A stretch of DNA of 64,000 nt from Chloroflexota bacterium (lineage in GTDB: Bacteria > Chloroflexota > Dehalococcoidia > Lucifugimonadales > UBA3495), in the NCBI GenBank assembly GCA_027623675.1, contig JAQBVF010000002.1:103195-167194 (forward strand). The letters are read 5' to 3'. This document shows, piece by piece, positions 12,001-15,000 of this stretch (position 1 is the stretch's first letter; the number at the start of each line of letters is the position of its first letter). Made by a program: the position numbers.

Positions 12001-15000
12001 ACTGAACCTGGCCATTTCCGTGCCCGCCAAATTGGCACTGGACGGCTGGAGTCTGCGGCTGGCCGACCTGGATATCTTGGACAGTTTGCTGGACCCGTTG
12101 GGTGTTTCCGAACGGGCCAGGTCGTTCATCATCCAGAGCATGCCCCGCCTGCGGGAAGGGCACGGCGCCGTATCCAAGCTGGTGGAGGAAGGCCGCCGTC
12201 TGCATCTGGCCGGCGGCGACGGTTCCGGAGACGGTGAAGAAGCCGCTCTGCACCAGGCGGTCCAGGGATTGAACGACGACCAGGCCCGGTCCGTATTGCT
12301 GGGCCTGTTGCGATGGAACTCGGCCGACCACCTGGGGCAGCGGACCCCGGAGGACGTGGTGGAGCGTCTGCTCCGCAAGATACGGGGCGCCGACAGCGAG
12401 GACAAGCTTCGGCAGGGCTTGGAGTTGGCCAGCGACCTAGCGGTTATCAAGGGCGAACCCCAAGCGGCGCTGGAATCGGTCAACGCTGTTCTGGCATCGG
12501 CCGGCGCCAACCGGAACGCAGCCAGTCGCTTGACGGAGATAATCGGCCTGATGGCAGACGGGCAAGATGCCAAGGGCAGGGTTGTGTTGGACTTCAGCCT
12601 GGTCCGCGGCCTGGCCTACTACAACGGCGTGATATTCGAGGTCAGCCATCCCGGTTGGCCAGGACCTTTGGGCGGCGGCGGCCGGTACGACAACCTATCT
12701 CGGGCGCTGGGCGGCAGCGACGCGGTCCCGGCCCTTGGCTTTGCCTATAACCTGGACGCCCTCATCGCCCTGGGCGCAGGCTAGGCCAGGACCATGACCA
12801 TTCAAGACGAGAATAAGAACCGGAGCGATGGCCCCCTGCGCATCGTCCTGCCCAGCGACGGCGAACTGTACGACTCGACCACCGCCTTCATGCGCGCCTG
12901 CGGCCTGGCGGTATCCCGGCCCAACGCCCGGCGCTATACCGGCTCGGTCCCGGCGATACCCGGCGTTGAGGTCCTTTTCCAACGATCGGGGGACGTCACC
13001 CAAAAAGTGGAAGAAGGCAGTGCCGAACTGGGCGTAACGGGCCTGGACAGGGTGCTGGAATACCGCAACGACGAGGCACGGGCGGCGGTGTTGATTGACG
13101 ACCTGCGCTACGGCCGCTGCGAGTTTGTCATGGCCGTGCCCAACTCCTGGATGGACGTGACTTCATTGTCTGACCTGGCCGACCTGGCTCTGGAATTCAG
13201 GCAGGAGGGCAAGCAACTCCGCATCGCCACCAAGTATCCCCGGCTGCTTCGCAGCTACCTCTACGAACGGGGCATCAATTTCTTCACTCTGGTGCCGGCC
13301 AGCGGCGCCATGGAAGCAGCCCCGGCAGCGGGTTACGCCGACCTGATAGCCGACCTTACGGCCACCGGCGCCACCCTGAGAGAGAACCAGCTCAAGATGC
13401 TGGAAGAGGGCACGATCCTCACCTCCCAGGCCTGCCTGATCGCCAATCCGGTGCTGCTGTCGGCCTCGAGAGAGATTCGAGGCATGGCCCGGTCGATCGT
13501 CGAATTGATGGAGGGTCACCTGAGGGCAGAACCCTACTACCGCGTCACCGCCAATGTGCGGGCAGGTTCGGCTGAGGAAGCCAGCGCCACGGTCCTGACC
13601 CGCCCCGACCTGGCCGGCCTGCGCGGCCCCACCGTCGCCAGGGTCTACAACGTGGAAGAACAGGACTGGTTCAACGTGAGCCTGCTGATCAAGAAGGGCA
13701 AGCTATTGGAAGCGGTTGACCACCTGAGAGGCTGCGGCGCCATCGACGTGGCCGCGTCCCAACTCAGCTACCTGTTCGACGGCCATTCCGAGGCCTACAG
13801 GTCGTTGTTCGGTGAGGAATCCGCCACCCGGAACTAACCCGCAGGGTCTAGAAGAAATGCCAAACCTGCCGATGCACATATACCTGGCCAATCTGGCTGC
13901 AGAGGAGCTGGACCGTGGTTACTTACACGACCACCGGGGCAGCTTTTATCTGGGTTCGACTGCTCCGGACATCCGCGCCATGACCAGGAAACCCAGGGAG
14001 CTGACCCACTTCGCGCCCCTGTCGGTGGAGGAAGTCGGCACCGGGACCAGGACCATGTTCCAGATGCATCCCGAGTTGAGCGACGCGTTGACGCCGGCCT
14101 CTCAGGCGTTCTTGGCTGGCTACATCTGCCATCTGGCGGCGGACGAGATCTGGATCACCAGCGTGTTCCGGCACAATTTCGACACGTCTTTGGAAGACAG
14201 CCGCTTGACCGACGACGAGGTGCAAGCCAACATCTGGGACCGCGCGATGCAACTGGACCTGGACCGTCAGACCCTCAGCCAGTTCGACGGGGACAATCAC
14301 CCGAAACGGCTGTTAGCCTGCTCCGATCAGGACGTGTCCATGCCTTTCTTTGAAGACGGCCTTCTGGCAGAGTGGAAGGACCGGGTTGGGCGGTTCGCTG
14401 TCTGGGAGTTCAACTGGGACCGATTGAAAAGCGCCCTCAACCGGCTGTACCGTGATGACGAACAGGTGCAACAGGCCGTGGAGAAGTTCCTGGATGGGAT
14501 GCCACGCAGTCTGGAACAGGTCTACAAGAAAGTCCCCGAGGGCGAGATCTCGGCCTACCAGCAACGGGCCGTGTCCGCCACCATCGACCAAGTCCGGGAG
14601 TTTATGCCGGAGTAGAATGGGCAACGGATATAGGGAGAATCAACGTGGCGCTTAATGTGATACATGGAGTCAAGAACGCCGAGAACGTTCTGGTCCGCAT
14701 CGACCCTTTGGACCTGGACTCATTACCCGAGTCAGTGCTGGCTCGGACCGAGGCCGCCTTCGGCAAAGGCGTGACCCCGCTTCAGTCGATCAACCAGATG
14801 CTGGACGACGTGCGCCGGGAGGGCGACGCCGCGGTGTTACGCTACGCCAAACTCCTAGACGGCTCGGACCTGGAAGAGTTCCGGGTGACCGAAGCCCAGA
14901 TGGCCCAGGCCAGAGATTCGATCAGCAAGGAACTTCGGGAGGCGTTGGAGATGGCCGCTGACCGGGTGCGGAGCTTCCACGAATCCACCATGCCCAAAGA

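Follow-up and report, generated by a model that had tools for sequence, protein, structure and literature searches.

The histidine operon described here raises the question of whether the gene between hisG and hisD, referred to below as X, encodes the histidinol-phosphate phosphatase (HolPase) of its lineage. The HolPase step is the one in histidine synthesis most often without an assigned gene: GapMind 2026 (PMC13759103) has no hisN for 42 of 208 prototrophs (20%), which is the fifth quoted in an earlier note on this DNA, and a HolPase is missing in approximately 32% of the histidine-synthesising organisms in KEGG (PMC10804674). Literature searches for a phospholipase C (PLC)-like gene in his operons found nothing. 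Our analysis partly supports the proposal that X is a new HolPase that closes the gap. HolPase is the single likeliest function of X, with a probability of about 0.4.

Within the window, i.e., the whole 64,000-nt stretch of DNA that was analysed, the operon runs on the + strand in the order hisZ-hisG-X-hisD-hisC-hisB, with gaps of 9–36 nt as far as hisC. The first gene is hisZ (11558..12784), for the regulatory subunit of ATP phosphoribosyltransferase (PF13393, 2.2e-51; TIGR00443, 3.8e-64), followed by a long form of hisG with a HisG_C domain (12794..13837; PF01634, 5.2e-41; PF08029, 1.2e-09; TIGR00070). The stop codon of hisG is separated by 19 nt from the start of X (13857..14615). The histidinol dehydrogenase gene hisD (14645..15976; PF00815, 3.8e-154) has a GTG start codon that lies 29 nt past the X stop and is preceded by GGGAG. 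The histidinol-phosphate aminotransferase that makes the proposed substrate of X is encoded by hisC (16013..17131; TIGR01141, 5.3e-98, above the cut-off), and hisB (17163..17840) encodes the imidazoleglycerol-phosphate dehydratase domain only (PF00475 at residues 59–202), with no fused phosphatase, as the bifunctional model NF003937 is matched at positions 161–355 only. The open reading frames and the Pfam and NCBIfam matches bear out the operon as first described, including a 252-residue X and a hisB reduced to its dehydratase domain. Searches for RNA or fitness data gave none. Among sequencing runs, no RNA run was listed as containing this DNA; three DNA runs contain all or part of it, of which two may come from the source sample and the third has just 0.14 of the sequence words, and a fourth run of the same study contains almost nothing of it.

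X starts with ATG, a choice supported by the N-terminus MP..H that is kept among homologues. Pfam family PF00882 (Zn_dep_PLPC) matches residues 6–112 with an E-value of 8.5e-10 (1.6e-10 in the earlier note) and a score of 39.3 bits, above the cut-off of 26.8, and the match covers positions 1–110 of the 167 in the profile, as had been noted. An NCBIfam scan returned 0 families for X at E ≤ 0.01, with no match to the known HolPase families TIGR01261, TIGR01856 and TIGR02067, and a search of the ESM Atlas recovered the same PF00882 clusters and nothing else. The claim that X has no hydrophobic segment holds; the highest 19-residue Kyte-Doolittle mean is 1.14 here and was 0.7 before, and neither value suggests a membrane span. 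The conserved start, MPNLPMH, opens neither a hydrophobic N-terminal segment nor a signal peptide, and X is a predicted soluble, cytoplasmic protein. Longer or fused forms of X, including an X-HisD fusion, were not found at E ≤ 1e-6. One 355-residue call (P0186) joins HisG_C to the start of X; it is a single truncated record that may be a gene-calling artefact.

An AlphaFold (AF2) model of X computed with a 66-sequence alignment reached a pLDDT of 95 and a pTM of 0.93, and supersedes a previous attempt that had failed at pLDDT 36. An exhaustive VIA search of 48,161 chains with this model gave zinc phospholipases C (1olp, Z 8.0; 1ah7, Z 7.8; 8cqm, Z 7.0) and S1/P1 nucleases (8qjl, Z 7.0; 5fb9, Z 6.5; 3w52, Z 6.4) as its top six matches, on a scale where, by the search's own note, Z below 8 (below approximately 13 for helical bundles) may reflect a mere common arrangement. 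These six matches cover residues 1–252 of the model, and the next row, which is unrelated, has a Z of 4.3. The fold emerged from the VIA search alone: Foldseek gave no match in the PDB at E ≤ 0.001, and PDB chains searched by sequence and by profile yielded nothing related. In the model, the whole domain is helical and has the PLC/P1 fold.

Eight residues of X (His7, Pro37, Asp38, Arg47, His51, Gly88, His92 and Asp96) are invariant among 66 diverse sequences with identities down to 24%, and Asp128 is conserved in at least 90% of them. Nine residues had been considered invariant from 17 orthologues; His7, Asp38, His51, His92 and Asp96 stand and Asp128 nearly so, but Asp19, Asp25 and Glu97 are not conserved across the wider set. 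The pattern H..D..H..HxxxD is spaced like what we take to be the zinc ligands of PLC. Met1-Pro2 is near-invariant, and the C-terminal half of the alignment shows no conserved His or Asp that could be a candidate for a third zinc site. The residues Asp128, Arg129 and Gln132 are retained in the 11 his-linked orthologues that were checked (one has Lys at position 129) and are replaced in both paralogues checked from outside the class. These subfamily-specific residues point to a specialised function of X.

The comparison with characterised enzymes reveals both the kinship and its distance. The whole of X has its fold in common with the zinc phospholipases C from Bacillus cereus (1ah7), clostridial alpha-toxin (1olp, N-domain) and Listeria (8cqm), with 157–166 residues aligned, but the identity in the structural alignment is just 9–15%. 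The zinc site typical of the superfamily is trinuclear and has nine ligands, among them the processed N-terminal residue. PLC is a secreted lipase that begins with a processed Trp and has a third zinc site, whereas X is predicted to be cytoplasmic, begins with Met-Pro, shows no conserved His or Asp for that site in its C-terminal half and belongs to an operon for amino-acid synthesis. The S1/P1 nucleases (5fb9, 3w52 and 8qjl) have the same fold but are secreted, glycosylated, trinuclear enzymes acting on nucleic acids, with no detectable sequence similarity to X. In S1 nuclease, the zinc cluster is described as bound by the main chain of the N-terminus together with His and Asp side chains, and the enzyme is reported to have 3′-mononucleotidase activity, that is, to act as a phosphomonoesterase that releases phosphate (PMC5201275).

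The reaction proposed for X is identical to that of the known HolPases, whose HAD (HisB-N, paHisN and nmHisN), PHP (HisJ/HisK) and IMPase (HisN) folds are all unrelated to that of X. The PHP enzymes use a multi-metal centre. Known HolPases are encoded in or near his operons, as is X, and the archaeal nmHisN is reported to have been discovered through the same type of operon context (PMC10804674). The phosphatase-family genes impA, suhB and cysQ of Corynebacterium glutamicum and the IMPase-like SerB of Rhodanobacter, for which a role in histidine synthesis was assumed from similarity or context, are a warning for X. Of the four hisN homologues of C. glutamicum, only cg0911 is reported to have HolPase activity (PMC5516325), and HisN-like IMPases such as that of Rhodanobacter are reported to have proved to be phosphoserine phosphatases (PMC13759103).

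As previously claimed, no recognised HolPase could be found in the source genome with the sequence models applied: TIGR01261 (HisB-N) has no match, TIGR01856 (PHP type) gives no more than 32 bits where 90 are required, and TIGR02067 (IMPase type) scores 160 bits, below its cut-off of 275. HolPase motif 5 is absent from the IMPases of this genome, and they retain the Gly of WDxAGG, which makes them SuhB-type by the motif criteria given in PMC5516325. In the main rival, a HAD protein encoded between hisF and hisIE, all 11 orthologues have D-x-[Y/F]-x-T where the phosphatase motif is D-x-D-x-T, so that the second Asp is gone and the candidacy of this protein is weakened. Two of the competitors named at the outset, this HAD protein and the genome's own IMPases, are thus weak candidates. 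The genome also encodes three or more HAD phosphatases with the usual D-x-D that could serve as HolPase.

We further analyzed the distribution of X in 151 genomes of the class (Dehalococcoidia/SAR202-type), of which 144 bear hisD and 7 do not. X is present in 81 genomes (57 genera), and in all 81 it immediately precedes hisD, in the same orientation, a tighter linkage than the 64 of 71 loci with the hisG-X-hisD order first claimed. The gap between the match ends of X and hisD ranges from −4 to 202 nt, with frequent overlaps of 1 or 4 nt between the stop and start codons, which suggest co-translation. X was found in none of the seven hisD-less genomes and never away from hisD within the class sample. 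The linkage holds even though, between families, X retains 26–34% identity against 43–52% for HisD. All occurrences fall in one class, as the earlier note had cautioned, and the 81 genomes are therefore not independent events. In the same survey, no classical SerB turned up in any of the 151 genomes.

X is missing from 63 of the 144 hisD-bearing genomes, including all six sampled from the source genome's own order. In 33 of 40 inspected his loci without X, hisG directly adjoins hisD. A search for a different hydrolase in the vacant slot gave no more than a GNAT gene at one locus, small HEPN-type open reading frames at another and, at two loci of a single family, an MBL-fold gene next to a hisD that stands alone; in one family a HAD gene follows hisB. 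Two near-complete X-less genomes of family f103 match their X-bearing relatives in IMPase and HAD content, and in genus g238 of this family X was lost with no substitute visible.

A complementary distribution of X and the known HolPases was not found in the 151-genome sample, which was searched for the HisN and PHP types; the search for HisB-N (TIGR01261) covered the source genome alone. HisN-type IMPases, defined as those with at least 200 bits on TIGR02067, occur in 20 of the 81 X-bearing and 6 of the 63 hisD-bearing X-less genomes, and all 10 that were checked have HolPase motif 5, with the Gly of motif 6 missing. PHP HisJ-like proteins (E ≤ 1e-10) occur in 10 of the 151 genomes, all X-bearing, and four exceed the cut-off. 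One or the other type is present in 30 of the 81 X-bearing and 6 of the 63 X-less genomes. In family f111, the HisN-type gene lies 2.5–5.2 kb downstream of hisD on the contig of X in five of six cases, and every invariant residue of X is intact. Most genomes of the survey lack a recognisable HolPase; neither type is found in 57 of the 63 X-less genomes, and another HolPase must therefore exist in the class. The his-operon linkage on which X was proposed as a new HolPase thus stands, but the claim that the lineage's gap is thereby closed does not hold, because 30 of the 81 genomes with X hold known HolPase types and 63 of the 144 do without X.

We tentatively prefer to explain X as a metal-dependent phosphoesterase of the cytoplasm with the PLC/P1-S1 fold, fixed as a his-operon gene in part of the class. 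Its job would most likely be to hydrolyse the L-histidinol phosphate made by HisC, yielding the L-histidinol on which HisD acts. His7, Asp38, His51, His92 and Asp96 would coordinate two metals in a centre like those of the superfamily, and the N-terminus, probably Pro once Met1 has been removed, may add a ligand, as does the N-terminal Trp of mature S1 nuclease. Arg47, the Asp128-Arg129-x-x-Gln132 segment, and Tyr89, Trp99 and Trp173 would bind the substrate by its phosphate and its amino-imidazole group. The analysis shows the fold, the conservation and the gene order; we infer the metal content, the substrate and the standing of X as the physiological HolPase, as opposed to one of several redundant HolPases. 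X may, with slightly less assurance, found a further, structurally unrelated class of HolPase, probably with two metals and its own N-terminal Pro as a ligand, recruited into the his operon of the Dehalococcoidia/SAR202 type as the first member of its superfamily in central biosynthesis. If this is true, the reaction gains a fourth fold, the PLC/P1 nuclease superfamily gains its first biosynthetic, cytoplasmic member, and part of the gap is filled for a marine and subsurface lineage that is abundant and largely uncultured.

A weighty alternative, although one we doubt, is that X is a his-linked hydrolase with another substrate, either a phosphorylated by-product of histidine synthesis or a HisG-regulating nucleotide cleaved by a P1-like 3′-phosphoesterase activity, and that the HolPase step is performed by a SuhB-like IMPase, a D-x-D HAD protein, the HAD protein next to hisIE or, in genomes that have it, HisN. 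This would account for the 20 genomes in which a motif-bearing HisN accompanies X, beside the same operon in f111, and for the loss of X in g238. It also accords with a fold best known for acting on phosphodiesters, with the several unassigned phosphatases of the source genome, and with the additional HolPase that the 57 X-less genomes need anyway. On the other hand, no such extra step of the histidine pathway is known, HisE is already provided as fused HisIE, and X always adjoins the gene of the enzyme that consumes histidinol. The co-occurring HisN-like IMPases could be phosphoserine phosphatases, as reported for others (PMC13759103), in a class where classical SerB was not detected in the 151 genomes sampled. 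Promiscuous phosphatases are reported to buffer the loss of HolPase (PMC5516325, PMC10804674), and the patchy loss of X is for this reason compatible with a HolPase role.

It is unlikely that X has nothing to do with histidine synthesis and sits between hisG and hisD through inheritance of an old operon insertion. The restriction of X to one class, the many kin that do without it, and the unrelated contexts of its paralogues outside the class, whose neighbours are an esterase, a PRK-like kinase or Amidohydro_3, would all fit such a history. An inert passenger would hardly have kept its place in all 81 genomes through divergence down to 26% identity, never apart from hisD and never in a hisD-less genome; the stop/start overlaps and the subfamily-specific residues likewise argue for a function. 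Even if X is not the HolPase, this adjacency marks an unrecognised function tied to histidine synthesis.

HisD is a zinc enzyme, and X could in principle be its metal-handling or structural partner in vivo instead of a hydrolase, given the fixed, often overlapping position before hisD and the conserved metal-type ligands, but this is very improbable in view of the full catalytic-type set of His and Asp with a conserved Arg, which fits an enzyme, of the 63 kin in which HisD works without X, and of the lack of a fused X-HisD form in the search at E ≤ 1e-6. A complex prediction for X with HisD scored 0.00 and speaks neither for nor against binding.

A role for X as an analogue of HisE, the PR-ATP pyrophosphatase, was also considered and rejected; the source genome already has HisIE as a fusion whose PRA-PH domain is good, and this fusion is present in X-bearing and X-less genomes alike.

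Gene X is an open reading frame of 252 amino acids on the forward strand of the window (13857–14615), with an ATG start 19 nt past the hisG stop and an end 29 nt ahead of the GTG start of hisD. Pfam and NCBIfam matches identify its neighbours as hisZ (11558–12784), hisG (12794–13837; the long form with HisG_C), hisD (14645–15976), hisC (16013–17131) and hisB (17163–17840; dehydratase domain only). The sole Pfam match of X is PF00882 (Zn_dep_PLPC; 39.3 bits, cut-off 26.8), aligning residues 6–112 with positions 1–110 of the 167-position profile, and no NCBIfam model matched. The protein is acidic (pI 4.9), and its hydropathy profile contains no hydrophobic span. 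The earlier description of X as a soluble PF00882 protein inside the his operon is thus borne out. The long-form HisG is co-encoded with the HisZ regulatory subunit (11558–13837), an unusual pairing; the usual companion of HisZ is short-form HisG.

A search of 1.84 billion representative proteins revealed 373 relatives of X (E ≤ 0.001). Many are full-length, with 26–57% identity, and those named by organism all come from Chloroflexota, Dehalococcoidia or SAR202. In an alignment of 66 diverse members, H7, P37, D38, R47, H51, G88, H92 and D96 are invariant, and M1, P2, G33, F52, Y89, L93, W99, F108, D128, R129, Q132 and W173 nearly so. Among the residues previously listed as invariant, H7, D38, H51, H92 and D96 keep that status and D128 is near-invariant, but D19, D25 and E97 are not conserved. 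AlphaFold2 run on this alignment gave an all-helical model (pLDDT 95.0, pTM 0.93) that replaces the failed model of the earlier note. Foldseek found no match for it in the PDB. An exhaustive structural alignment against 48,161 chains placed six members of one superfamily on top, each spanning residues 1–252: the clostridial alpha-toxin N-domain (1olp, Z 8.0), Bacillus cereus phospholipase C (1ah7, 7.8), Listeria PLC (8cqm, 7.0), the nuclease SmNuc1 (8qjl, 7.0), S1 nuclease (5fb9, 6.5) and a plant bifunctional nuclease (3w52, 6.4). For a helical protein such Z values (6.4–8.0) count as moderate, a caution that the search method itself attaches; the next match was an unrelated chain (Z 4.3). Because the ranking is exclusive to this superfamily and the Pfam match is independent of it, the PLC/P1-type fold predicted by the model is a sound assignment.

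The spacing H7..D38..H51..H92xxxD96 appears to resemble the ligand spacing of PLC and P1. A sequence-level search of solved chains with X gave no match. Since the C-terminal half carries no conserved His/Asp/Glu set for a third metal among the 66 aligned sequences, the site would be a two-metal one. In S1 nuclease, the zinc cluster is bound by the main chain of the mature N-terminal residue and by His/Asp side chains, and the enzyme also hydrolyses phosphomonoesters as a 3'-mononucleotidase, according to passages of PMC5201275. The near-invariant Met1-Pro2 of X probably reflects an N-terminus that acts at the metal site.

X is tightly linked to hisD. In a phylum-wide sample, the X query matched 36 of 401 genomes: ten, including the source genome, hold full-length proteins of the same class (Dehalococcoidia), two hold full-length paralogues in other classes, 23 hold N-terminal-only relatives in a single family (f39) and one match is weak. 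In a sample of 151 genomes of the class, 144 carry hisD and 81 carry X, the latter representing 57 of 111 genera. In every one of the 81, X immediately precedes hisD and is read in the same direction, with a gap between match ends of −4 to 202 nt, mostly below 30 nt; none of the seven hisD-less genomes has X. Nine class members, drawn from eight families, share the order hisG-X-hisD-hisC-hisB despite the low identity of X to the window protein (26–34%; HisD 43–52%). The paralogues outside the class lie away from his genes, next to an esterase, a PRK-like kinase or Amidohydro_3, and lack D128, R129 and Q132, three residues that all 11 of the his-linked orthologues examined retain, save for a K at 129 in one. 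Given this linkage, the paralogue contexts and the residue pattern, X forms an orthologous group of its own, with a specialised role connected in some way with the his operon. It is a conserved and almost certainly catalytic metallo-phosphoesterase whose gene is tied to hisD. The f39 relatives, from another class, adjoin an Amidohydro_3 gene (L021:7560–8678, L024:7521–8390, L027:8078–10348), in the last case apparently joined to it in a single frame of 757 aa, and form a paralogous group of their own, with a different partner.

The likeliest single function of X is that of a histidinol-phosphate phosphatase (HolPase), at a probability of roughly 0.4, because this is the only hydrolytic his step without an assigned enzyme in the source genome, where HisE is part of a fused HisIE. 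In that genome no HisB N-terminal type (TIGR01261) was found, and no PHP-type match (TIGR01856) exceeds 32 bits, where the cut-off is 90. The best IMPase (C3:41202–42023) scores 160 bits against 275 for TIGR02067. Judged by the motifs that separate HolPases from SuhB-type IMPases in portions of PMC5516325, it has GSSGL...VDLY in place of motif 5 and retains Gly in WDLAGG, and its sequence marks it as SuhB/ImpA-like. The strongest rival enzyme in the earlier note was a HAD protein encoded outside the window between hisF and hisIE (C47:51326–52033; locus L008:2354–3061). Its motif I is FDMYETL, and all 11 aligned orthologues read D-x-[Y/F]-x-T, so that the second Asp, which serves HAD phosphatases as general acid/base, is missing; on this motif they resemble haloacid dehalogenases. 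The protein retains a phosphatase-like GDxxxD motif IV, and its best NCBIfam match, TIGR01428, is under cut-off. Of 61 genomes with a homologue, 11 have the gene beside hisIE, in two lineages (the source genome, six of family f6 and four X-less genomes of the source's own order). The source genome also encodes three or more ordinary HAD phosphatases with the D-x-D motif. A literature search confined to non-subscription sources found no paper on a PLC-like gene in his operons.

Were X the HolPase of the class, its distribution should complement that of other HolPases. It does not, and the proposal that X closes the gap for SAR202/Dehalococcoidia fails on this point. HisN-type IMPases, taken as those with a TIGR02067 score of 200 bits or more, are present in 27 of the 151 genomes: 20 with X (families f23, f14 and f111, as well as G450 and G482), six with hisD and no X, and one with neither. 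All ten inspected have motif 5 (e.g. RAWGDCYGY) and lack the Gly (WDxA[A/P]). In five of six f111 genomes the gene is found 2.5–5.2 kb downstream of hisD and beyond the hisZ-hisG-X-hisD-hisC-hisB cluster, on the contig that holds X, and X of f111 keeps every invariant residue. PHP HisJ-like proteins (E ≤ 1e-10; four above cut-off) are found in ten of the 151 genomes, all with X. Recognised HolPase types are commoner with X (30/81) than without it (6/63), a comparison that, among kindred genomes, does not amount to a statistical test. Position 99 of X is Tyr in five checked orthologues from HisN-IMPase-bearing genomes (f111, f23, f14) and Trp in the other eight aligned sequences, including two out-of-class paralogues; common descent or altered function could account for the change.

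Several points temper these objections. Loss of HolPase frequently causes no more than bradytrophy, since other phosphatases take over, as parts of PMC5516325 and PMC10804674 describe, and Rhodanobacter HisN-like IMPases, 38–40% identical to the Corynebacterium glutamicum enzyme, are phosphoserine phosphatases according to a section of PMC13759103. Classical SerB (TIGR00338) matched none of the 151 class genomes at E ≤ 1e-15 and 8 of 14 control genomes; together with the Rhodanobacter precedent, this suggests that the HisN-like IMPases of the class might serve serine synthesis. The serine pathway of the class has a phosphatase gap too, alongside that for HolPase.

X is absent from 63 hisD-bearing genomes, including all six sampled from the source's own order. 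Among 40 such loci inspected, hisG abuts hisD directly in 33 and an unlabelled HisG-sized frame does so in two; the remaining five hold unrelated genes (a divergent IMPase in one, small ORFs of HEPN type in another, an MBL-fold gene in two and a GNAT in the last). Family f103 has X in three genomes and lacks it in two near-complete ones (G420, G468), with an identical set of IMPase paralogues in both groups and seven HAD matches in each of G420, G468 and G448, which are complete or near-complete. Since these operons are otherwise intact and no substitute is seen in f103, X can be lost with the rest of the operon in place, and the class must have some HolPase beyond X and the recognised types. 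Owing to these clean losses and the lack of complementarity, an accessory or different his-linked role for X is nearly as likely as HolPase activity. The HolPase reading of the earlier note therefore stands as the likeliest single function, favoured by the unbroken hisD linkage, but is weakened by both observations. That X is a hitch-hiker gene is improbable, and that it serves as a HisD partner is less probable still.

In one X-less genome (G432, family f115), a 253-aa HAD hydrolase directly follows hisB on the same strand (L049:9971–10729), which makes it a candidate for another type of HolPase within the operon. In many class genomes the gene immediately before hisD or X encodes a HisG some 470 aa long that matches PF01634 in two distinct segments (L034:8315–9727, L035:5469–6866, L039:8314–9729, L032:5553–6989, L051:4628–6034), which is a tandem or duplicated ATP phosphoribosyltransferase. 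P0186, a 355-aa protein from a metagenome record, joins HisG_C (residues 94–171) to the start of an X-like domain (204–295) in one gene call, and represents either a HisG-X fusion or a stop lost on a short contig.
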